Virus record (IMG/VR): IMGVR_UViG_3300040811_000687
Strand: one strand, 5' to 3'
DNA length: 64,000 nt
From: a virus
In this document: positions 6,216 to 57,075 of the stretch, one piece after another
Position numbering within the stretch: the stretch's first letter is position 1
How the letters are laid out: every line of letters starts with the position of its first letter
Program-made: the position numbers and the translations under genes
The notes under the pieces: generated by a model
Seen by the model: only the letters and a program-made list of their open reading frames with translations
Told to the model about the DNA's origin: nothing
The model's database searches: none

Positions 6216-6644
6216 TTAAGATAAATCTTTTTCAGTTATAATTTTAAATTCAGCACCTTGATCTTTACAGTATTTGGTAGCGGCTTGCCATTTAGCTTTA
6301 TTTCGTATATATTCTAATGACTCACGCATGTAAGACTTGGTCTTTCTGCTAGTTGGTTTTTTAGGTGGCACACATTGACGTGATGGTTTAATTTCTATTA
6401 CTAACTTACTGCCTGTTTTGGTCTTTACAATGAAGTCTGGAAAATATCTGTGCCATTTGTTGTCAATAGGACTATAATATCTAATTGGTAACTCCTCACT
6501 TGCCCAATGGTCTATATTATCACTTTTATCCAAATACACCATCATACGTCTTTCTAATAGTGAACGGTATATAATGTTATTTGGATCACCAACATACTTG
6601 CTGGGGTTGATTGGTTTATATATTCCCTTAAAAGATTTCTTCAT
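6216..6644 (-). CDS. gp4: Head completion nuclease gp4 (start revised to MKKSFKGIYKP)
   Basis: YKPINPSKYVGDPNNIIYRSLLE, WASEE, HRYFPDF, IEIKP, NKAKWQAA, FKIITEKDL. Confidence 0.93.
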   Translation of the reverse strand: MKKSFKGIYKPINPSKYVGDPNNIIYRSLLERRMMVYLDKSDNIDHWASEELPIRYYSPIDNKWHRYFPDFIVKTKTGSKLVIEIKPSRQCVPPKKPTSRKTKSYMRESLEYIRNKAKWQAATKYCKDQGAEFKIITEKDLS

Positions 6645-6650
6645 AACCGT

Positions 6651-6658
6651 TATAAATA
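6651..6658 (+). promoter_or_regulatory. Late promoter for the gp48 operon
   Basis: TATAAATA in the gp4/gp48 divergent gap; AAGGA RBS downstream. Confidence 0.7.
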
Positions 6659-6684
6659 TACAAGTATATATAAAGGAATTAAAT

Positions 6685-7830
6685 ATGGCATGGACATCTA
6701 AAGTAGCAAACATTATCAAGGGCAAAGTAGGAACAATGATTGGCTCATCAATAGCCAATAAATTAAGTTTTGCCTCATCTGGTCAAACAACCAAAGTGGC
6801 TGCTAAATTATTAAATAAATCTCCGTTAGAGATAGGTACAACAGGACCTATGTCACACATGGAGTCTATGAACAATCCATACAGTTATGGTACAGTATAT
6901 TATCCACAAGAGGCAGGTAATTTAGGTGCTGGTCACTATATTATATTTGATGTAGTATCTCACAAGTCATCTAAATTTAAACAACAAACATTTAAGAACG
7001 GTGCTTTGACAAATGCTTCAGGAGCAGTACCTGGTAAACCAAGAGTTGCCAACATAAAAAGAAATGGTATCACACAGGCAAAAAGATTAAGATCAACTTC
7101 TTCAGGTGCTATGTCAAAAGTTGGTGATACGCACAATTATATTTCAGACAGTATTATATTATATACACCAGCAGAGGCAATGAAATTTAATTACAGTGCC
7201 AGTTATGAAGACACACAAACAGGTCTTGCAGGTGATGTGGCTAGCATGATTGGTGGTGTAATGAACGATCCAGGTTTCTTAAACAAAATTCAGGCTGCCG
7301 GTGAGGGTATTGGTGGTATTGGTAGAGAGTTGTTGAAGTCAGGAGCTTTTGCAGCTGCTAGTATAATACCAGGTTTTGAAAATAGTAGACAATTATTTGA
7401 TAAGTCATTAGGTCAGGCAAAGAACCCTAATCTAGAAACAATATTTCAGTCAGTGCCATTTAGATCATTTAGTTTTCCTTTCTTATTTGCACCAAAAGAC
7501 GAGAAAGAGAAAGATCAAGTACACAAAATTTTACAACTGTTTAGATTTCATATGTTGCCTGAACACCAAAGCGCTGCTATAAAATCAGGTTATTTCAACA
7601 CACCGTCAGAGTTTCAGATTACATACATGTACAGAGACAGTGAGAACGCATACTTACCAAGAATAAGTCGTTGTGTATTAAAAGAATGTAATATAGATTA
7701 CGCACCAGAGGGTGTTGTATCATCATTAATCGCAGATGAAAAAGGCGCACCACCAACTATTATTAAAATGGATTTAACATTTGGTGAAACAGAAATTATG
7801 ACTAAAGAAACAGTAGCAGAGGGATTCTAA
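6685..7830 (+). CDS. gp48: Baseplate tail-tube cap gp48 (start revised from 6574)
   Basis: NPNLETIFQSVPFRSFSFPFLFAPK, PSEFQITY, CVLKECNIDYAP, LTFGETEIMTK. Confidence 0.88.
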   Translation: MAWTSKVANIIKGKVGTMIGSSIANKLSFASSGQTTKVAAKLLNKSPLEIGTTGPMSHMESMNNPYSYGTVYYPQEAGNLGAGHYIIFDVVSHKSSKFKQQTFKNGALTNASGAVPGKPRVANIKRNGITQAKRLRSTSSGAMSKVGDTHNYISDSIILYTPAEAMKFNYSASYEDTQTGLAGDVASMIGGVMNDPGFLNKIQAAGEGIGGIGRELLKSGAFAAASIIPGFENSRQLFDKSLGQAKNPNLETIFQSVPFRSFSFPFLFAPKDEKEKDQVHKILQLFRFHMLPEHQSAAIKSGYFNTPSEFQITYMYRDSENAYLPRISRCVLKECNIDYAPEGVVSSLIADEKGAPPTIIKMDLTFGETEIMTKETVAEGF

Positions 7831-7831
7831 T

Positions 7832-8353
7832 ATGTATTTTGAAACATTTCCATTAATGAACTACAGCAATGATAAGATCACAACTAAACAAGTAACAGAT
7901 TTATTCAGACGTATAAAAATTAAAGAGAAAATACTTGACGAAGCAAGTTTGTATCAAGAGTATGATGTACCAAATGGCGAAAGACCTGAAGATACAGCAA
8001 TGAAACATTTTGGTGATCCTCAATATCATTGGGTAATATTAATGACAAACAAAAGTCAAGATGGTTTTTATGATTGGCCATTAGATTTCAGAGCATTTGA
8101 AACTTTTATAACAGACAAGTATGCCAATCCAGACGCAACACACCATTATGAAAAGGCACAAACAAGTGGTAAAACAACATCAAATGATTACTCACACTTG
8201 ATAGAAGTAAACAGTACAGAGCCAGGTGCTTTATCAGTCTCTAATAGACAATATGAAGAAAGAATACAAGACGCAAAAAGAAAAATTAAACTTCTTAATC
8301 CAGGTTTCTTGCCTGTATTATTAGAAGAATTTGACAAATTGATGAATGAATAA
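7832..8353 (+). CDS. gp53: Baseplate wedge gp53
   Basis: MYFETFP, GERPEDTAMKHFGDPQYHWVILMTN (LysM-like), YDWPL, HHYE. Confidence 0.92.
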   Translation: MYFETFPLMNYSNDKITTKQVTDLFRRIKIKEKILDEASLYQEYDVPNGERPEDTAMKHFGDPQYHWVILMTNKSQDGFYDWPLDFRAFETFITDKYANPDATHHYEKAQTSGKTTSNDYSHLIEVNSTEPGALSVSNRQYEERIQDAKRKIKLLNPGFLPVLLEEFDKLMNE

Positions 8354-8355
8354 TT

Positions 8356-9846
8356 ATGTACAATCAAATAAATGCTGATACACTAACAAGAGCAGGCCAA
8401 TTTGCCTTATCAGACATACAATTAATATCTTATCAATCTTCCGATGGCGGCAGTGAGCCAAAAAAGGTAAGTGTACGATCACTAGTGCTTGAGATAAACA
8501 TTTACGAAGATATATTTTCAAAAGGTCTATCAGGTAATGTTGTATTACTTGACGGTCAAAATCTTACCAACCACTTACCACTTACAGGCTTTGAACGTAT
8601 AGAATTTAAACTGAATACACCAGGTATTGCAAAAGGTTTTGATTTCACGGCTACAACAGGTCACCCGATGTACATATACAAAATATCAGGTAGACAAGAG
8701 GCAACACCAAGAACGCAGATGTACGTATTACACTTTGCTTCTAAAGAGATATTAACAAACGAAACAAAGAAAATTTATAGATCAATGTCAGGCACCATAG
8801 ATGATATGGTCTTGGACGTTTTTAGAACTGATTTAGAATCAAAAAAGACATTAATACTAGAAGAAACAAAAGGCATACGTAAATACGTGCCAGTAGGTGA
8901 AAGACCATTTGATTTCATAGAAGGATTATCCAAGTCTGCCGAGTCGGCGAGATACAATAATAGTGGTATGTATTTCTATGAAGACAGTACAGGTTTTAGA
9001 TTTAGAAGTTTAGAAAATATGTTGGCGATTACAGATGGCGCTGCTAGACCAGTGGTCGCAAGATTTGAAAAGAAACCTAGATCAATTAAAGGTGGTACAG
9101 GTATTACCAATATCATACAAGAAATGCAAACAGTTGATGGTTTCACAATAGACAACCAGTTTGACACAATAAAGAATTTAAGAAATGGTGTTTACGCAAG
9201 TAGAACAATCAGCCATGATATGTTTAACAAGACATACACTAATTTTGATTATGATTACAATCTAGAGTTTGAGAATATATTTCATACTGAACATGATGGT
9301 AATGGTGGTAAAACAGATAACAAGTCAATTGCACCATTAATTAATTATCATGGTAAACAATTTAGTGATTTCGCAGATACAGCATTATATCTACAATCAA
9401 CAACAACCAATACACATGATAATTTTGAAGATGAACCAAAAGGCACAAACATGGCCAAAAGACTTGCACAAAGAATGGCTTTCGCTGCTGGCCAGGTATC
9501 ATTAACAGCAAGAGGTTTTACTGGATTGTCCGTTGGTGATGTAGTTGCACTAGAGATTCCGGCATACGAACCTGCCGGTGTAGACAACCCTCTAGATAAT
9601 GATCCGTACATGTCTGGACGCTACCTGGTTAAGTCCATACGACATAAAATAGACACAGCTAAAGATATGCACACAATGGCCATTAATACCATGAAGGACG
9701 CAGTAAGGGTCGCATATCCAGAGGAGAGTATAGATACATTTACAGGTAGAGAAAACGCAGAGGCCACCAACATATTACAATACGATTTAGACGACATGTT
9801 AATAACAGAGGCAAGCAAAGGAGACAACGATGGTATACTCTCATAG
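8356..9846 (+). CDS. Baseplate hub protein (gp27-like)
   Basis: INIYEDIFS...LSG, LPLTGFE, FYEDSTGFRFRSLE, SGRYLVKSIRH; located between gp53 and gp5. Confidence 0.7.
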   Translation: MYNQINADTLTRAGQFALSDIQLISYQSSDGGSEPKKVSVRSLVLEINIYEDIFSKGLSGNVVLLDGQNLTNHLPLTGFERIEFKLNTPGIAKGFDFTATTGHPMYIYKISGRQEATPRTQMYVLHFASKEILTNETKKIYRSMSGTIDDMVLDVFRTDLESKKTLILEETKGIRKYVPVGERPFDFIEGLSKSAESARYNNSGMYFYEDSTGFRFRSLENMLAITDGAARPVVARFEKKPRSIKGGTGITNIIQEMQTVDGFTIDNQFDTIKNLRNGVYASRTISHDMFNKTYTNFDYDYNLEFENIFHTEHDGNGGKTDNKSIAPLINYHGKQFSDFADTALYLQSTTTNTHDNFEDEPKGTNMAKRLAQRMAFAAGQVSLTARGFTGLSVGDVVALEIPAYEPAGVDNPLDNDPYMSGRYLVKSIRHKIDTAKDMHTMAINTMKDAVRVAYPEESIDTFTGRENAEATNILQYDLDDMLITEASKGDNDGILS

Positions 9847-9988
9847 TTTTCAAGATATACAGAGAATCTCCGAGTTTTCCGACCGCTCCGCTCGCTTTGA
9901 CGATAGATATTACTCTAACGGCCAATACAATGGCCATACGAGAGGTAGAACGCATAATATAACACATACCAACGTGAAAGGCAAATGA
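9830..9988 (+). CDS. 52-aa hypothetical protein (absent from ORF track)
   Basis: AAGGAG RBS, ATG 9830 (MVYSHSFQDIQRISEF...VKGK). Stop overlaps the next start (ATGA). Confidence 0.45.
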   Translation: MVYSHSFQDIQRISEFSDRSARFDDRYYSNGQYNGHTRGRTHNITHTNVKGK

Positions 9989-10239
9989 ATAATACAATGA
10001 ATAAACTGATAGATAAAATCAACAAATCCATAGAAACGGTCTCTCTGGAGGCCTTTGATAAGGCATACTCTTATAAACTCTTATATTTCTATAAGGGCCA
10101 ACAAGAAGTAATAAACACAATGAAACTTGAAGCTAAAGACAAGCTAGCGCATGTCTTGGCCTATATGGGGTATAGGTTATATCACAATCCGTTGAATAAG
10201 GCAAGGGATAAGTATAATGCGTACAAAGAAAAGAAATAG
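9985..10239 (+). CDS. Hypothetical protein
   Basis: 84-aa ORF coupled to the upstream small ORF. Confidence 0.5.
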   Translation: MNNTMNKLIDKINKSIETVSLEAFDKAYSYKLLYFYKGQQEVINTMKLEAKDKLAHVLAYMGYRLYHNPLNKARDKYNAYKEKK

Positions 10240-10300
10240 GCATTTATGACGTATAGCGTAGTGATTAAAAATAAACATTTATCGGAAAATATTTAAGCAT

Positions 10301-11449
10301 ATGGCAAGATTTATAGGAAAGAATACAGATTTTACATGGTTTTCAGGTGTAGTAGAAGACAGACATGACCCTCTCTTTGCTGGCCGTTTAAGAGTTAGAT
10401 GTTTAGGTTTTCATACAGACAACAAGAGTGAGTTACCTACAGAGGACTTACCATGGGCTATGTGTGTGTTATCAACGGCCTCACCAGGTATTTCTGGTCT
10501 TGGCCAATCTCCTTCTTTTCTTGTTGAGGGTAGTTGGGTGTGGGGATACTTTCGGGACTCTGGCCACCAAGAGCCAGTGATTATTGGTTCTTTACCTGGT
10601 AAACCCTATGATCTTGGCAATCCTAATAAAGGATTTAGTGATCCAAATCGTAGGTCGGAGGATGAGGAGGAAGAAGAATACAATCAATCAGTTTATCCTA
10701 AGGAGACAGGTGAGGTAGATACCAATAGATTGGCCGTTAATGATAGTGAGAAAGAACATACTTCGTTGACTACACGTAAGGCCGATAGAGAAAACAATTT
10801 GGATATACCAACGGCAGACTTTGATACAATAACGGCAGCCGATGGATCAAGTATAATCGCAAGTGATTCGGACACCTGGTCACAGCCGGTCATCCCTTAC
10901 TCGGCCGTTTATCCATATAATCATGTGTTTGAGAGTGAACAAGGCCATATCAAAGAATACGATGATTCATGGGAATATGATGAGTACACAAACGAATACC
11001 ACTATTACACACGTATACACGAAAGACACAAAAGTGGTACAGGTTATGAAATAGATAACAGTGGTAATATTGTAAAGTTGGTAAAGGCCAGCAGTTACGA
11101 AATAATTGACGGTGACCACTATGTAAATATCAAACAGGACTCCGACATTACCATTAATGGCCGTCATAAGATATTCATTAACAAAGATGGCTTTGAAAAT
11201 AACCATTACGACATACACGTAGGTGCCAACGCCAATATTAATATACAAGTAGACACAGGCGATATCAATATGGTTACCAAAGGTGGCCGTATCAATGTGA
11301 ACGCAGGCGGTGATTATAATGTTAAAGTAGGTGGTAATTACACATTATCAGTAGATGGTAATAAACAAGAAGATGTAGCAGGTTCTAAAACATCAAACAC
11401 AACAGGCGCAGTAGTACATAGAGGGGCTACAATAGATTTAAATCCGTAG
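10301..11449 (+). CDS. gp5: Baseplate central spike gp5 (OB fold plus beta-helix, no lysozyme domain)
   Basis: WFSGVVEDRHDPLFAGRLRVRCLGFHT, LPWA, GSWVWGYFRD, YPYNHVFESEQGH, C-terminal VxG repeats and IDLN. Confidence 0.92.
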   Translation: MARFIGKNTDFTWFSGVVEDRHDPLFAGRLRVRCLGFHTDNKSELPTEDLPWAMCVLSTASPGISGLGQSPSFLVEGSWVWGYFRDSGHQEPVIIGSLPGKPYDLGNPNKGFSDPNRRSEDEEEEEYNQSVYPKETGEVDTNRLAVNDSEKEHTSLTTRKADRENNLDIPTADFDTITAADGSSIIASDSDTWSQPVIPYSAVYPYNHVFESEQGHIKEYDDSWEYDEYTNEYHYYTRIHERHKSGTGYEIDNSGNIVKLVKASSYEIIDGDHYVNIKQDSDITINGRHKIFINKDGFENNHYDIHVGANANINIQVDTGDINMVTKGGRINVNAGGDYNVKVGGNYTLSVDGNKQEDVAGSKTSNTTGAVVHRGATIDLNP

Positions 11450-11618
11450 AGATATTTTTCCATATATGGCTCGCTATTGGCCATATGGTACCAGGATTTA
11501 ATCTATAAATGCAATAACAATCATTAGCATTGTTCTTATCTTAATTTTTTTCCTGGAGGATTTTCCTGGTGGCTGGAAGCAGGCCATACCTTTCTTTATC
11601 TCGTATTACATATTAGGC

Positions 11619-11647
11619 TTGACTTTAGTCATAATACCAGATATAGT
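11619..11647 (+). promoter_or_regulatory. Sigma70-type promoter
   Basis: TTGACT-17bp-TATAGT; ATG 6 nt downstream. Confidence 0.7.
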
Positions 11648-11653
11648 ATACCT

Positions 11654-11743
11654 ATGGACATCATACTCGCAATACTAGTGCCAGCCATACCATTAGGTTT
11701 AGTTACTTTATTACTTCTATTTTGGAATAACGAGAAGCCCTAA
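11654..11743 (+). CDS. 29-aa single-TM peptide, leaderless (absent from ORF track)
   Basis: MDIILAILVPAIPLGLVTLLLLFWNNEKP, starting at the predicted TSS of the upstream promoter. Confidence 0.55.
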   Translation: MDIILAILVPAIPLGLVTLLLLFWNNEKP

Positions 11744-11999
11744 ACTGTCACAGCCTATACATTGGCCGTTTCTTATACATAACGGTGTAGTTCCGTAAGG
11801 AAAGCTCCTAGGTCCATAAGGCCTGAAACTTACATATTCACATTATAATCACTCTAAAAAGGATAAATAGTATTAGAAGCATTATGCTTTTTATATTATC
11901 CTCAAATTGATTTTTTTATACAGTAGAGTTCTTTCCTGTTTAAACGAAAGAATGACTATGGCATCCAATAAGGACATAGTAAAAAATAAAAAGGATTAA

Positions 12000-12326
12000 A
12001 TGGCAAAATTGCAAAAATATGCTTTGATGGCATTAAAGAAGAAATCACCTAAAGTACCTAATTATACATGTACAGATATTGATAATATTATTACGACTCT
12101 TGGCCAATTACACGAAGGCACGAAAAAGATGACGAAGTTGCGTTTAGATGTTTTAGAACGTAAATTAGAAAGATTAAGAAGTTCTAATGAGTCGTTAAGG
12201 GATAGTGGTATCTACTGGTATGGTGTCTGTAAGAAGATTATTAAAAGTGTTAAGAACGTTAAGAAGGCCACTTTAAGTAAAGTAAATAAAAAAAATCGGA
12301 AAAATCGGAAATTAAACTCTGATTAA
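12000..12326 (+). CDS. Basic coiled-coil hypothetical protein
   Basis: AAGGA RBS; LERLRSSNESLRDSG coiled coil. Confidence 0.6.
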   Translation: MAKLQKYALMALKKKSPKVPNYTCTDIDNIITTLGQLHEGTKKMTKLRLDVLERKLERLRSSNESLRDSGIYWYGVCKKIIKSVKNVKKATLSKVNKKNRKNRKLNSD

Positions 12327-23756: not shown

Positions 23757-25226
23757 ATGCCAGCGATAATAACAAATAAATTTAGAATTAATAATAGTGA
23801 GCAGTTTCACGAATCTTTCACAGAAGCTTCTCCAAATATTTACTATCTAGGTCTAGCAAGACCACAAGCTTATGGTACATTTACAAGAGGTGATGGCCGA
23901 ACAGATTATGAAGGAACAGACACAAATCCAGTAACACCAAGTGATACTGTAGTTACAGAATTTTCTGCTTTTGATGACTTATTAGCTGCTAAAAAAATTA
24001 CAAGTTCAGATGTTAGTTTTGCAGTACCAAGAAGAAATTGGACAACTGGAACAACATACGATATTTACAGACACGACTATGGAGAATTTGTTACAGGTAG
24101 TACTTTAACAAGAAATACAGCTAATAGTGGTGCAATAACTTTACATGACGCTAATTTTTATGTATTAACTACAGATAGAAATATCTACAAGTGTATTGAC
24201 AATGACGGTAATACTGCTTCAACAATAGAACCAACAGGAACAGGTAATGCTGTTATAACAACTGCTGATGGTTACAAATGGAAATACATGTACACTATGT
24301 CAGCTTCTCAACAATCAAATTTTTTATCAACTGACTTTATGGCAGTTTCAACTAACTCAACTGTTAGTTCAGCCGCTATAGATGGTTCAATTGATTGTAT
24401 TAGAATTAAATCAGCAGGTTCAGGTGGAACAGACGGAACACATTCAGTAACAATTAAAGGTGATGGATCAAGTGCAACAGCTAATGTTGTAGTTTCAGGT
24501 GGTATTATTACAGAGGTAACTATGACTAACGTAGGATCAGGTTATACTTTTGGTACAGTTTCAAACGCAGAAATAGTAACTGCTGGTGCAACAAACTTAA
24601 CAGGTGCAGAATTAGATGTGATTATATCTCCAAAAGGTGGTCACGGTTTTAATGCAGTACAAGAATTAGGTGGTTTCTTCGTAATGTTAAATATAAATTT
24701 AGAAGGAGCAGAATCAGCAAACTCTGGAGATTTTCATGCTGGTAATGACTTTAGAAAAATTTGTTTAATCAGAGATCCAAAAGCTTCAGGTTCAGCTGCA
24801 AGTGCTTCAACTTTAAGAGGTACTAAAGCAGTAAGACTAGCAGCTTCTCCTACACCAGGAACATTTACAGTTGACGAAGAAATTAATCAAGCAACTACAG
24901 GCGCTGTCGCTAAAGTTGTAGAGTGGGACGCAACAAACAGAATTTTATATTACATTCAATCAAGACATAATGACGCCGGCGTTGACGCTAATGGTAACTT
25001 GACAGCTATTTCTAGTACTCATGTAATTACTGGTCAATCGTCTTCAGCAACAGGAACGCCAGACACAAGCGTTTCGGCAACAGTTAACAATGTTGTATTT
25101 TCAAGTGGGTATTCTGCTTCTGAAATAGATCATGACTCTGGCGATGTATTGTACATAGAAAACAGAGCACCTATTCAAAGAGCAACAGACCAAACAGAAA
25201 ATATTAAACTAGTTATTGAGTTTTAA
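23757..25226 (+). CDS. gp8: Baseplate wedge gp8
   Basis: MPAIITNKFRI, VPRRNWTTG, YKCIDN, DGYKWKYMY, SGDVLYIENRAPI, ENIKLVIEF. Confidence 0.92.
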   Translation: MPAIITNKFRINNSEQFHESFTEASPNIYYLGLARPQAYGTFTRGDGRTDYEGTDTNPVTPSDTVVTEFSAFDDLLAAKKITSSDVSFAVPRRNWTTGTTYDIYRHDYGEFVTGSTLTRNTANSGAITLHDANFYVLTTDRNIYKCIDNDGNTASTIEPTGTGNAVITTADGYKWKYMYTMSASQQSNFLSTDFMAVSTNSTVSSAAIDGSIDCIRIKSAGSGGTDGTHSVTIKGDGSSATANVVVSGGIITEVTMTNVGSGYTFGTVSNAEIVTAGATNLTGAELDVIISPKGGHGFNAVQELGGFFVMLNINLEGAESANSGDFHAGNDFRKICLIRDPKASGSAASASTLRGTKAVRLAASPTPGTFTVDEEINQATTGAVAKVVEWDATNRILYYIQSRHNDAGVDANGNLTAISSTHVITGQSSSATGTPDTSVSATVNNVVFSSGYSASEIDHDSGDVLYIENRAPIQRATDQTENIKLVIEF

Positions 25227-41679: not shown

Positions 41680-42515
41680 AATTTTAATATATTACTATAC
41701 TTTTCAATAGGAAAATGTCCTTTCGGTTGTACATATTCTTTACATGTTACACAATACTTCTCATATTTGAATAACTGGAAGTTCATCATCTTATCAATGT
41801 TTTCTTTAGTCATAGGAAAAGACCTAGACAATTCGGTGTTATTTGCAAATTTTTTACTACAGTGTACTATATGTTTTTTTTCAAAATCTATAACAGGTAC
41901 CATAGGAAAAGCAGCACACATTTTACGATCTATTTCAGCCGCCTGTGTGTGTACTTCTTCTACATCACCTTTAGATGGTGTTCTACCGTTAAATGCTTTG
42001 AACATAGTATTTTTATGTTCTAATTGTTTTTTAAATTCTGGATAGTTAGCTATATACTTAAAGTAATTAGGCGTTTTAAGTACTACATTATAATTATTCA
42101 TATCATTAGGTGCTAGATAATCGTAGTTACCTAATTTTTTTATTTTATCTGGATAAAAATCCAGTGTTAAGTGTTCTACGTATAATATTTCAGGATCTTC
42201 TAATATTTCAGGATATCTTTTTCTTATAAAAGAATTAGATAAAACTTGAGGAATAAAATTAGGATATTCTTTTACCATTGCAATTACTTCACGAAGGTTT
42301 TTAATTAAACCTGGTTCACCACCAAGTAAACATATTCTAACTTTATATTCTTTTAACGCTTCTAAGGTTGATCTTAAAAAATCTAAATCTACTGTCAAGT
42401 TTCTCATTTCTAGAGTATAACTTGTACAATAATGACAATCTTTATTACAAGACATAGATAAAAAGAAATCTATCGCTAAATAATTTTTTTGTGCGTATTC
42501 TAGATCAAATTTCAT
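41676..42515 (-). CDS. Radical SAM enzyme (divergent)
   Basis: CNKDCHYC, LLGGEP; C-terminal Cys (MCAA...HCSK...YCVTC). Confidence 0.85.
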   Translation of the reverse strand: MKFDLEYAQKNYLAIDFFLSMSCNKDCHYCTSYTLEMRNLTVDLDFLRSTLEALKEYKVRICLLGGEPGLIKNLREVIAMVKEYPNFIPQVLSNSFIRKRYPEILEDPEILYVEHLTLDFYPDKIKKLGNYDYLAPNDMNNYNVVLKTPNYFKYIANYPEFKKQLEHKNTMFKAFNGRTPSKGDVEEVHTQAAEIDRKMCAAFPMVPVIDFEKKHIVHCSKKFANNTELSRSFPMTKENIDKMMNFQLFKYEKYCVTCKEYVQPKGHFPIEKYSNILKL

Positions 42516-43294
42516 ATAATTTTATATATTGAGAGTCTTTGTATAATATCATCTGCTATAAATTTGTGTCCTTTTTCGTTAGGGTGTTTATCTAAAGTAG
42601 ATACCATTCTATCTGTTATATAACCGTTTTTATACAATTTGTGCATAACGTCTAACATACTAAATTGAGTAAAATTAAGTTTATCTTGAGGTATATTATC
42701 AGTTAAAAAATTTTTTATCTTATATTTATATTTTGCAATACATCTTTTTATTTCTGTTTCATCTAATTCACGACTTCTTATTGCTTTATATGGTAGTATC
42801 GTATCGTCTTTTGTCAATTTAGGATTAATTAATATATCTCGTTCAGTAGGCTTTAATCCTTCAAACATACTTTCATAAATAGCTCCCAACATAAAATGGC
42901 AATAAGGTAAATTAAATCTTTCACATAGTATTTGAAAGCTCATAAATTGTCGCATTGATTTTTTTACACAATTTAATAAATCCATAGATTTGTGGACTCT
43001 GTTGGATCTCCAACGACCAAACCATCCTTCTTGATAATCTTCTCTATGAGATTGTGTCCAAGCTGCTATAACTAATCCTATTTCTTCTTTTGGTGTGTTT
43101 AATATTTCATCTTGTAGAGTAGAATATATAAATTCATTACCTTGACCACCTTTACCTAAACAAACTAGTTCCATACCTAAATGTTTTGCAAGATGTTCGG
43201 GCCATTTTGGCCATGAAAAGTCCCATGTAGGATGGCACACTGATTCAAAATCTAAATCTGTACAACTATCTCCACTAACTATTAATTTTTTCAT
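42512..43294 (-). CDS. SGNH/GDSL-like hydrolase or acyltransferase
   Basis: VSGDSCT, WPEHLA, GKGGQGN, DKHPNEKGH. Confidence 0.7.
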   Translation of the reverse strand: MKKLIVSGDSCTDLDFESVCHPTWDFSWPKWPEHLAKHLGMELVCLGKGGQGNEFIYSTLQDEILNTPKEEIGLVIAAWTQSHREDYQEGWFGRWRSNRVHKSMDLLNCVKKSMRQFMSFQILCERFNLPYCHFMLGAIYESMFEGLKPTERDILINPKLTKDDTILPYKAIRSRELDETEIKRCIAKYKYKIKNFLTDNIPQDKLNFTQFSMLDVMHKLYKNGYITDRMVSTLDKHPNEKGHKFIADDIIQRLSIYKII

Positions 43295-44078
43295 ATAAAA
43301 ACTCCATCATTTTAATTTGTCCTTTTGCATTTGGATGACTGTCGTAATCTGATATTCTTAAATTTCTGACCGTTTCAAGACCTTCTTGTAAAGAATTACT
43401 TAGCTGTAGACTTTCTTCTATCGTAGTTTTATGTTCAAGACAATAACCATTTAGTTCATTTAGAGCTGGCCAACCTATAAAATTATTTATATCAATATGT
43501 TTCTCAAAATCCATAACCATATTTTCTAAAAATTCTTGATCTTCTTTTTTATTTCCAGGATATTTTATTCTAGGCATTTCCTCTGCAGGCTTTGATTGTT
43601 TCATATGGCTAATAATTTCATCATCATTGGGCCACGATCCTTCTAACCAACTCCAAAATAAAGGTATCATTTGAAAGTGTAAGTATTTTAAATTCCATCG
43701 TTGACAGACATTTTGATAACTTAAATAGTACATTAATGATCTTTTTGTCCAACCAAAAATATCACCATCTGAATTAGGAACTTTAACTTCCCATTTTAAT
43801 CTTCGTCCCTCTTGCCAAGTATATCTTTGTGCTTGTGACCAACCTGTTATAACTAATCCTATTCTTTCTTTATCTGTATTAGCTATTGTTTCAAGTACAG
43901 ATTCATAAATATAATCATTTCCATAACCAGATTTTGCTACATTGATACATTTCATATCTAGTTTTTCTGCTAACAACTCTGGCCATTTTGGCCAAGATGT
44001 ATCTATTTCAGGATGTATATGACTCTTATAATTTTTATCTGTAAAACTATCACCACCAGCTATTAATATTTTTTTCAT
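43275..44078 (-). CDS. SGNH/GDSL-like hydrolase or acyltransferase (paralogue)
   Basis: AGGDSFT, WPELLA, AKSGYGN, DSHPNAKG. Confidence 0.7.
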   Translation of the reverse strand: MKKILIAGGDSFTDKNYKSHIHPEIDTSWPKWPELLAEKLDMKCINVAKSGYGNDYIYESVLETIANTDKERIGLVITGWSQAQRYTWQEGRRLKWEVKVPNSDGDIFGWTKRSLMYYLSYQNVCQRWNLKYLHFQMIPLFWSWLEGSWPNDDEIISHMKQSKPAEEMPRIKYPGNKKEDQEFLENMVMDFEKHIDINNFIGWPALNELNGYCLEHKTTIEESLQLSNSLQEGLETVRNLRISDYDSHPNAKGQIKMMEFLYEKINS

Positions 44079-55023: not shown

Positions 55024-57075
55024 ATGCCAGTAATTCAAAACGCTAGTGTTCGTGTCGGCCTAGGACGTATAGGTTATACAGGATCAGGAGGTCCAACAGG
55101 TTTTACAGGTTCCAAAGGGGATCCAGGGGCTGCCGGATCACCAGGTGGTTATTCAGGTTCACAAGGTTTCACAGGATCACGTGGTGAACAAGGTCCAGGT
55201 GGTGGTTACACTGGTTCAGTAGGTGCTGTAGGTTTTACAGGATCCTCAGGAGGTTTAGGGTACACAGGTTCATCTGGTACAGTTGGTTTCACTGGCTCAA
55301 CAGGAGTAGGTTATACAGGATCAAAAGGTGCTGACGGATCAGATGGTGCTGTTGGTTTTACTGGTTCTACCGGAGCAGGATATACAGGATCAAAAGGTGA
55401 CGCAGGCTCAGATGGTGCCGTAGGTTTTTCAGGATCAAAAGGAGATACAGGTTCACAAGGTATACAAGGTGTAACAGGTTTTTCAGGATCAAAAGGAGAT
55501 ACTGGTACAGCAGGCGCTATAGGATATTCAGGATCAAAAGGAGATACAGGTTCACAAGGTATACAAGGTGTAACAGGTTTTTCAGGATCAAAAGGTGACG
55601 CAGGCTCAGATGGTGCCGTAGGTTTTACAGGATCAAAAGGTGATCAAGGTGTAATAGGTTTTTCAGGTTCAAAAGGAGATACAGGAACAGCAGGTGCTGA
55701 TGGTTCAGATGGTGCCGTAGGTTTTACAGGATCAGTTGGTATAGGTTACACTGGTTCAGCAGGTGCCACAGGTCCTCAAGGTCCAGGTGGTGGTTATACT
55801 GGTTCAGCAGGTGCCGTAGGTTTTACAGGATCAGCAGGATCAGGAGGAGATTCTCCTTTTGTATTTACAACTTCAGGAGATTATAGAACACTTACAGGTT
55901 ATATAGAAAGTGGTGTAACAAGTACAGTTAGAACAGCAGAATTTTCAGGTGATCTTTTAAGATTAACTTTAGCAACTTTTACTCCTACATTTTCAGCTTC
56001 ATCAACTCCAAGTTCATCATTAAATTGGGATGTTCCTTGTACAGGATTTTCTGTATCAGTAGATAACCCTAGTGATGTCACAAACGATTTTATAAGTTCA
56101 GTTTACTCTATCACTCAATCAAGTGGAAGTGTTAACGGTACTTTAAGTAATTATTCAGCAGGTAGTTATTCACAAACACCAGCAGGTGGTGTAGATTGGA
56201 ATCAAACTTTTACTGTAGACAATTCAAGTTCATATATTAGACCAATATCAACTAGTCGTACTGGAGGTTCGGCTGGTGCAACAATTAAATTTAATCATAA
56301 TGACGGCAGTGAATCAGAATATACAGATTCAAATACAAGTTTTTCTGTAAACTGGTCAACAGCGTCTATGAGTTTATCTAAAACTAATGTTAGCGGAAAA
56401 ACATTTTTAAAATCTTATGCTAGTACATCGTACTCTACTAGCACAAGTGGTATATCAAATTCAAGTAACACTTCACATGCTTTAACAGCAAGTGGTGGTT
56501 CTTTGAGTACAAATTCAGGAAGCGGATATGTGAGTGGGACATTTACATTTACATCACCTATACACAAAGACAATACAAGCGATACACGTACTATCTCAAA
56601 TACGTGTACGTTTACAAGACCTGTTGATGTAACAGGTTCCTCATATACGACAGATCAGTCGTCAACAACAAGCAACATATCTGCTTCATTTACGTATCCG
56701 TCTTTCTGGATCTGGACAACAGGAGTAGGAACTACTCCAACACTCTCCGATATAATAGATGATTCAACATCTACAGGTTTTGAATCGGCAGTTAATCAGT
56801 TGTCAGATCAAACAAGAACATTTTCAGTACAATCAGTTACTAATTCAGATTCTAATCCTAGGGCATTTTGGTTTGCTGTTAGAAATTCAGCGTCTCAACC
56901 TGGTACATTTAAAACAGGTGCAAGTGCAGGATTATTAAGTGATGTTAGTACAACAGATGGTGGAACAATTACACTAGTACCTGATTCACCATTATCAGGA
57001 CAAACAGGAGAAAGTTATCATTTATATGGATTTACTTTACAACCAGGAACAACTTACGTGGAGATAGGAGCATAG
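55024..57075 (+). CDS. Collagen-like fibre protein with Ser/Thr-rich C-terminal domain
   Basis: About 260 aa of G-X-Y repeats (GFTGS/GYTGS/KGD), then a beta-rich domain. Confidence 0.85.
   Translation: MPVIQNASVRVGLGRIGYTGSGGPTGFTGSKGDPGAAGSPGGYSGSQGFTGSRGEQGPGGGYTGSVGAVGFTGSSGGLGYTGSSGTVGFTGSTGVGYTGSKGADGSDGAVGFTGSTGAGYTGSKGDAGSDGAVGFSGSKGDTGSQGIQGVTGFSGSKGDTGTAGAIGYSGSKGDTGSQGIQGVTGFSGSKGDAGSDGAVGFTGSKGDQGVIGFSGSKGDTGTAGADGSDGAVGFTGSVGIGYTGSAGATGPQGPGGGYTGSAGAVGFTGSAGSGGDSPFVFTTSGDYRTLTGYIESGVTSTVRTAEFSGDLLRLTLATFTPTFSASSTPSSSLNWDVPCTGFSVSVDNPSDVTNDFISSVYSITQSSGSVNGTLSNYSAGSYSQTPAGGVDWNQTFTVDNSSSYIRPISTSRTGGSAGATIKFNHNDGSESEYTDSNTSFSVNWSTASMSLSKTNVSGKTFLKSYASTSYSTSTSGISNSSNTSHALTASGGSLSTNSGSGYVSGTFTFTSPIHKDNTSDTRTISNTCTFTRPVDVTGSSYTTDQSSTTSNISASFTYPSFWIWTTGVGTTPTLSDIIDDSTSTGFESAVNQLSDQTRTFSVQSVTNSDSNPRAFWFAVRNSASQPGTFKTGASAGLLSDVSTTDGGTITLVPDSPLSGQTGESYHLYGFTLQPGTTYVEIGA
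55072..55845 (+). repeat. Coding collagen-like tandem repeats
   Basis: Recurrent ggttttacaggatca and tcaggatcaaaagg units. Confidence 0.85.

Follow-up and report, generated by a model that had tools for sequence, protein, structure and literature searches.

Why should one four-letter DNA word be packed into a single zone of a phage genome, across genes, reading frames and intergenic DNA alike? The question is raised by a 64,000-nucleotide virus sequence, IMG/VR record IMGVR_UViG_3300040811_000687 (the window, meaning the whole stretch analysed), in which a preliminary description had counted about 26 GGCC sites in 2.8 kb around gene 5 and had proposed a candidate origin, packaging or methylation-signal region. 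We find that, in a widespread clade of T4-like phages of pelagimyophage type, GGCC sites form one array per genome, with a site roughly every 100 bp, and that this array is probably maintained by selection acting on the duplex DNA. By family searches of its open reading frames (ORFs), the surrounding zone (8356-12326) is the baseplate module of a T4-like myovirus, and the array is centred on the gene for gp5, the baseplate hub. No nucleotide-level match of the window to deposited phages was found. Because, among isolates, its gp5 protein is nearest to those of Pelagibacter phage Mosig (56%) and then HTVC008M (38%), we assign the window to the pelagimyophage group.

Exact counting bears the earlier figure out. 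All 26 positions then listed are GGCC, and no other GGCC lies within 9453-12266: 9453, 9490, 9678, 9762, 9920, 9932, 10050, 10096, 10158, 10382, 10477, 10502, 10562, 10732, 10780, 10903, 10943, 11086, 11159, 11285, 11479, 11582, 11764, 11820, 12102 and 12266. Base composition predicts 3.6 sites in 2.8 kb, and the rate in the rest of the window predicts 1.9. The whole window holds 67 sites, 41 of them outside the array in 61 kb; between 17669 and 32337, where about one had been noticed, there is exactly one, at 23895. Tetranucleotide z-scores, suggested earlier as a check, make GGCC the most enriched 4-mer (z = 17.5 against the rest of the window), and the runners-up, TGGC and GCCA, are GGCC with its own flanks. 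When all 4-mers are scanned, the top 3-kb window for GGCC starts at 9251 and has 25 sites against 2.1 expected (P about 7e-19). The sole stronger local 4-mer signal in the window belongs to a collagen-repeat gene at 55 kb (55024-57075), which has strong skews of its own in CAGG, AGGA, ACCT and GATC.

The enrichment is 7-fold over local composition and is specific to the full word: GGCC is raised 13.7-fold, GGC outside GGCC about 2-fold and GCC outside GGCC 1.1-fold. Sites are spaced more evenly than chance would have it, with a coefficient of variation of the gaps of 0.62 against 0.94 for random placement (P 0.008), and the same evenness was seen in eight of eight loci tested; no helical phasing was detected. 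A longer motif was considered and rejected, as the flanks show background-like preferences with weak half-site biases and no extended consensus. No G precedes and no C follows GGCC, which parallels the genome-wide rarity of GGGC and GCCC, and the flanking base preferences are roughly strand-symmetric. The array overlaps a compositional island at 9480-12326, where the GC content of third codon positions (GC3) is 0.31-0.44 as against 0.11-0.27 in other genes and where CpG depletion is relaxed (observed/expected about 0.8 versus 0.4 elsewhere). Overall GC of the region is 0.37 against 0.32, and its dinucleotide signature differs.

Protein coding does not explain the array, as had been claimed from the way the sites cross gene borders and frames. 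Within ORFs they are read in two reading-frame positions, GGC-Cnn or nnG-GCC. The gp5 gene carries 11 sites against 3.07 +/- 1.37 under within-gene synonymous shuffling, a number that 0 of 500 shuffles reach, and window codon usage predicts 0.54; the five ORFs of the region together have 23 against about 2 expected. At 11 of the 21 gp5 dipeptide positions where GGCC is synonymously possible it is used (43-74% in relatives), compared with 3.7% (38/1016) over the remainder of the window; HTVC008M and the relative L029 never use it (0%). In the tail gene upstream of gp5, such positions are used 1 time in 18 over 8356-9393 and 4 times in 17 over 9394-9843. Codon choice depends on context: in gp5 of array-carrying phages, Gly is encoded by GGC in 68% of cases before a codon that starts with C and in 32% otherwise, and Ala by GCC in 59% after a codon that ends with G and in 26% otherwise. 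This preference is reversed in lineages with weak or no arrays. Synonymous shuffling gives a significant excess in 11 of 14 array-bearing sequences. GGC and GCC are used three to four times as often in gp5 as in other genes in every relative, the GGCC-free ones included. Elsewhere in the window, two genes at 42512-44078 have six GGCC sites that persist under synonymous shuffling and are therefore forced by the protein sequence.

The enrichment recurs at the gp5 zone of IMG/VR contigs at 54-88% protein identity. At least five GGCC per kb of gp5 are found in 55 of 67 environmental relatives, and the median is 7.9 sites per kb in gp5 against 0.4 per kb beyond 1.5 kb upstream. The mean profile of 12 non-redundant loci has a plateau across gp5, where a site occurs about every 108 bp; its shoulders reach from about -850 to +2000, counted from the gp5 start codon, and beyond them the profile is at background. 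GGCC peaks only once, at the gene-5 zone, in the complete Mosig genome (94-98 kb, 14 sites), where sites also fall in oppositely oriented genes downstream of gp5, and in three long IMG/VR contigs, G002, G003 and G004 (55, 64 and 36 kb). The first of these is depleted of GGCC outside the peak: it has 13 sites where about 30 would be expected.

In the gp5 tree, array-bearing sequences fall into two well-supported clades that are separated by about 0.9 substitutions per site. About six site columns of the gp5 alignment are common to both. Beside these conserved sites the wobble bases have diverged (GGC-CGT, CGG, CGC and CGA; GGC-CAT and CAC), and GGCC-free lineages encode the same dipeptides as GGT-CGC, GGC-AGA or GGT-CAT. 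Where the dipeptide is conserved, the silent base within GGCC was kept in 27 of 32 comparisons against 166 of 370 for other four-fold gp5 codons (P 1e-5, over pairs that are not independent). Turnover is evident as well: 48 columns contain GGCC in one or more of 18 sequences, sites are also found in lineage-specific insertions, and close relatives inside one tight group have 6, 9 and 10 sites in gp5. Density is thus maintained by turnover and not by fixed positions. Silent positions, non-coding sites and this mixture of conservation and turnover together give good support to the earlier proposal of a cis-acting DNA signal overlaid on coding sequence.

Outside both array clades on the gp5 tree stand Mosig (6 sites in gp5), L020 (4), L029 (0) and HTVC008M (0). 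Sister lineages and cyanophages avoid the word, with 22 sites against 112 expected in HTVC008M and 2 in 28 kb in two cyanophage regions. Mosig and the GGCC-avoiding HTVC008M were isolated on one and the same host strain. In the pelagimyophage Melnitz (L178, 16530-16780), five GGCC lie in 235 bp within repeated TGTCAAGGCC-like words; these words stand ahead of a sigma-70-type promoter, all within the variable stretch upstream of gp5. A separate observation concerns contig ends. Of the 67 IMG/VR contigs, 36 stop inside gp5 and 10 more at most 600 bp after it, against only 4 that start inside gp5, and the ends in the GGCC domain are dispersed over about 1 kb; the domain is therefore a hot zone for assembly breaks, which could reflect differences between strains, genuine DNA termini or DNA that sequences poorly. 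Across comparisons there is no consistent dip in nucleotide identity to relatives at gp5, a gene reported to be unusually divergent among pelagimyophages (PMC7029224).

The features of the locus are as follows.

6574-7830: gp48-like tube cap
7832-8353: gp53
8356-9846, plus strand: tail/baseplate protein gene, phrog_350 by family match; its final 450 nt are the upstream shoulder of the array
9453-12269, no strand: GGCC array, 26 sites by exact count, mean spacing about 110 bp
9830-9988, plus strand: small ORF of 52 aa with 2 GGCC sites, lineage-restricted
9985-10239, plus strand: small ORF of 84 aa with 3 GGCC sites and no family or atlas match
10301-11449, plus strand: gp5 baseplate hub/cell-puncturing protein by family matches, 11 GGCC sites, the core of the array
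11450-11999, no strand: non-coding stretch of 550 bp with 4 GGCC sites (11479, 11582, 11764, 11820)
11503-11511, plus strand: CTATAAATG, resembling a T4-type late promoter, with a leader of about 60 nt after it, conserved in an alignment of seven relatives
11619-11743, plus strand: sigma-70-type (early-type) promoter TTGACT-17-TATAGT before a leaderless 29-aa hydrophobic ORF (11654-11743), conserved in relatives
12000-12326, plus strand: ORF of 108 aa with 2 GGCC sites, at the downstream edge of the array

Gene order 53, 5, PAAR, 6 is conserved and places gp5 where it stands in T4. The protein has an OB domain and C-terminal repeats and lacks a lysozyme domain. No neighbour gene co-varies with the array: the small upstream ORFs are lineage-restricted, atlas searches came back empty, and the 108-aa ORF occurs in array-bearing and array-free relatives alike and is therefore not a co-varying factor.

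In the non-coding stretch after gp5, four sites stand against roughly 0.4 expected, a rough estimate from GC content. The short palindromes noticed earlier are present at 11461-11492 (CCATATATGG, TGGCCA, CCATATGG and GGTACC). The assignment of CTATAAATG as a putative late promoter draws on the T4 late consensus TATAAATA. The early-type promoter directly precedes the 29-aa ORF and is embedded among late genes; an AT-rich stretch also lies just after gp5. The GGCC sites of the gap flank these conserved promoter, leader and ORF elements, and their positions shift between relatives. One relative (L023, 7370-7435) has four tandem copies of a GGCC-bearing 13-mer, AAGCAGGCCATAC, just downstream of gp5; they take the place of the small-peptide gene and precede another ORF. 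The region shows no excess of terminators and no match to an Rfam family.

Genes for a protein that reads GGCC were sought in phages and hosts. Pelagimyophages infect SAR11, the most abundant ocean bacteria. Full-length C5 cytosine methyltransferases are present in two of three closed SAR11 genomes (HIMB4, L301; HTCC8051, L302), and the enzyme is nearer to M.HhaI than to M.HaeIII (E 1e-43 versus 1e-25). The HIMB4 gene adjoins a HerA-type helicase gene, which suggests a defence island. GGCC is not avoided in HIMB4 (756 against 605 expected), and that genome has no AT-rich GGCC cluster, its sole cluster lying in a segment of 48-57% GC. Mosig, HTVC008M and the three SAR11 genomes yielded no Vsr-type endonuclease, and neither an N4 methyltransferase nor a HaeIII/NgoPII nuclease was found in the SAR11 genomes. 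In a marine survey, methylated GGCC was seen only in viral genomes (PMC9516812). Restriction systems are reported to be nearly absent from SAR11 (PMC7029224), which makes both the array and the extreme avoidance of other palindromes in these phages more puzzling. The window has 0 TCGA against 191 expected and 1 CGCG against 44; Mosig has 0 ACGT against 422, 0 CGCG against 102 and 19 GATC against 422; G002 has 0 CATG against 158, 0 CCGG and 15 AGCT against 158. The avoided set thus varies between relatives, and the host-type genome HIMB4 holds 1594 TCGA; phage-encoded nucleases or unsampled hosts are possible sources of the avoidance. HTVC008M (L097) is depleted of AGCT genome-wide (153 against 441 expected) and has 23 AGCT in 3 kb at 72-75 kb, across the scaffold, prohead core and major capsid genes, a peak that may be a codon effect of Ala-rich, highly expressed genes.

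What might such an array do? Taken as a whole, the evidence leads us to favour an origin-like zone for the initiation of replication or recombination, a choice we make tentatively and with low confidence. Three points incline us to it: the T4 origin oriE falls within gene 5, which holds the corresponding position in the gene order; just past gp5, among late genes, come an early-type promoter and AT-rich DNA; and L023 has multiplied a GGCC 13-mer into iteron-like tandem copies. The array would be a multi-site landing zone for a factor that would recognise the palindrome as a dimer, and would mark the locus for the start of a DNA transaction. The DNA would be opened or broken here by binding at many of the sites, or by nicks or cuts directed to them, and replication forks would be seeded. 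A further idea, rather unlikely in our estimation, is that the array of 4-bp palindromes could be a unique genomic landmark for a putative GGCC-specific factor. In one form, programmed nicking or cutting limited to the gene-5 zone would launch recombination-dependent replication or load the sliding clamp for late transcription. A factor that reads such a landmark, if the idea is true, would explain the depletion of GGCC elsewhere in some lineages, and this cis-acting element would rest on a principle that has been described for no phage origin and no pac site.

Several results weigh against an origin-like initiation zone. Known origins are much smaller and less simple than a 3-kb array of a 4-bp word. 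No inflection of GC skew, the other compositional check suggested earlier, occurs at the locus. Promoter-like sites are not in excess over shuffled expectation in the region, and an antisense promoter-like site in gp5 (11268-11240) lacks conservation among relatives. At gp5, no palindrome is clustered in Melnitz, HTVC008M or two cyanophages; an origin here, if real, is lineage-specific. In T4, the oriE repeats coincide with the beta-helix peptide repeats of gp5, and their role was never established (PMC3016281). Nor did genes for a GGCC-reading protein appear. No C5 or N4/N6 methyltransferase (PF00145, PF01555) was found in Mosig, HTVC008M or G002-G004, and none among the ORFs of the 64-kb window. 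No HaeIII/NgoPII nuclease was found in Mosig, HTVC008M, the long relatives or the window's ORFs, a search of little power for HaeIII since RE_HaeIII was also without a match in control genomes. The putative reader is not a recognisable C5/N4 methyltransferase or HaeIII/NgoPII-type nuclease. The DNA-level signal first proposed for the region is well supported, and of the three functions suggested for it, methylation finds no support in gene content.

Other explanations were weighed against the same evidence. One of them, a compositional artefact or a recent import from a genome with other oligonucleotide usage, has next to no probability left, and we regard it as excluded. The somewhat higher GC and differing dinucleotide signature would suit it, but the excess over local composition survives codon shuffling, the array is common to two distant clades and to most environmental relatives, and sites were retained while adjacent silent positions diverged. 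The preliminary description had allowed that the enrichment might vanish under local GC and codon correction, or be absent from relatives and explained by an imported segment; it survives both corrections and is present in relatives, with no import. Biased repair would also leave the sites functionless. Gene 5 would be a recombination hot spot where heteroduplex is corrected toward G/C, particularly toward GGCC by a very-short-patch type of system, and the overlap with the GC3 island and its relaxed CpG depletion, the GGC- and GCC-rich gp5 of all relatives, the reported divergence of gp5 (PMC7029224) and the breaking of assemblies there are all in its favour. We nevertheless consider it improbable. 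The effect is specific to GGCC, sister lineages with an equally GC-rich gp5 have no sites, identity does not dip consistently at gp5, neither Vsr nor a phage C5 methyltransferase was found in the genomes searched, and the tandem 13-mer of L023 is not a repair product. A reading at the RNA level, highly unlikely in our judgement, would have GGCC in transcripts as the target of an endoribonuclease, or as a former of base pairs that adjust how stable the gp5 message is or how well it is translated. The plateau of the mean profile does coincide with the gp5 ORF, and gp5 is needed in few copies per virion in T4 (textbook knowledge). Since the palindrome is identical in transcripts of either strand, strand tests cannot exclude this reading. 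However, the array spans several ORFs, a non-coding gap with its own promoters and, in Mosig, oppositely oriented genes; flank preferences are roughly strand-symmetric, and no Rfam family matches.

Among the remaining alternatives, the sites could be bound by a terminase small subunit or a helper, with the first headful cut made nearby, as at the clustered hexamers of P1 pac. The single array per genome agrees with this, as does the tendency of some lineages to deplete the motif elsewhere while clustering it here, which is expected if ectopic sites are harmful, and contigs end unusually often in or just after gp5 (36 of 67, plus 10). Even so, packaging initiation is in our view a poor prospect. 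By textbook knowledge terminases of the T4 type need no strict pac site for packaging, and the pac sites that are known occupy at most a few hundred bp within or beside terminase genes; the array covers 2.8 kb, and family scans of the window turned up no terminase gene in it. The ends of the contigs are spread over about 1 kb and could equally result from strain-level variation that breaks assemblies, and the genomes searched (Mosig, HTVC008M, G002-G004) have no methyltransferase for control in the P1 style. Modification of GGCC by a host or phage enzyme, which would make the patch an epigenetic switch or timer like GATC at E. coli oriC, draws on GGCC being a classical methyltransferase target, on the marine survey in which methylated GGCC was confined to viral genomes (PMC9516812) and on the C5 methyltransferases of two of three SAR11 genomes. 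We think it very unlikely, given that no C5/N4 methyltransferase was found in Mosig, other relatives or the window, that the SAR11 enzyme is closer to M.HhaI, and that Mosig shares its host strain with a phage that avoids the word. There is likewise only a slight chance that the sites are decoys, soaking up a GGCC-binding host or phage protein as genome copies rise, in the manner of datA or plasmid iterons. They are many, simple, evenly spread and at a single locus, and their density is upheld by turnover, all of which titration would accommodate; yet no candidate protein is known, and an AT-rich GGCC cluster, which would hint at a host factor, is absent from HIMB4.

We found no earlier report of this array in the literature, and to our knowledge nothing is known of where pelagimyophage replication or packaging starts. 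The array offers a sharply defined and experimentally tractable handle on the question, with one locus per genome and silent positions used near the coding limit. It is present in most environmental relatives and erased in sister lineages. Identification of the reader would reveal a new sequence-specific DNA factor in phages or their hosts, and could show why some of these genomes are enriched in GGCC while others avoid it. As a method, local word clustering combined with synonymous-site tests can uncover cis-acting elements hidden in phage genes.

An origin-like zone invites comparison with T4. The preliminary description had placed oriE in the gene 53-5 region; the parallel holds and is closer than claimed, as the T4 RefSeq record annotates oriE at 79355 inside gene 5 itself, with repEA and repEB antisense within the gene. 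Six 12-nt direct repeats at 24-nt spacing lie in gene 5 coding sequence at 79402-79569 (about 170 bp), 47 nt from oriE. These iterons, which are conserved in syntenic regions of relatives, and the reliance of oriE on an early promoter have been described (PMC3016281). The two loci are alike in gene order, with the array centred on gp5, in the short repeated word that overlies gp5, and in an early-type promoter among late genes, here on the sense strand just after gp5. They differ in that the word is here a 4-bp palindrome scattered over 2.8 kb of coding and non-coding DNA. The window has no 12-nt direct repeats at even intervals (tandem 13-mers occur only in L023), and no repEA/repEB homologues or repE-like ORFs were seen. 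Because word type and span differ, and direct iterons, repE genes and a conserved antisense promoter are lacking, we do not class the array as of oriE type.

Comparison with other short-word loci follows the same pattern of partial likeness. The GATC clusters at E. coli oriC and P1 pac span 160-250 bp and act through Dam methylation together with SeqA or pacase. Like them, the array is a 4-bp palindrome far above chance at one cis-acting locus; unlike them, it is more than ten times longer and has no detectable cognate methyltransferase. P1 pac, moreover, is compact (about 160 bp) and sits beside packaging genes, whereas the 2.8-kb array lies among baseplate genes. Restriction-site avoidance also concerns a 4-bp palindrome, here a HaeIII-type target, under strong selection at silent positions, but the array has the opposite sign, a local enrichment near the coding limit. 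With 26 clustered and 41 other GGCC in the window, classical GGCC restriction therefore cannot be the pressure on this lineage. Iteron and titration loci, for example the RK6 gamma origin, P1 incA and E. coli datA, likewise gather many copies of a short word at one locus. Iterons are direct repeats of 12-22 bp, whereas the core common to the sites here is only 4 bp and palindromic; the tandem GGCC-bearing 13-mer of L023, however, does resemble iteron arrays.

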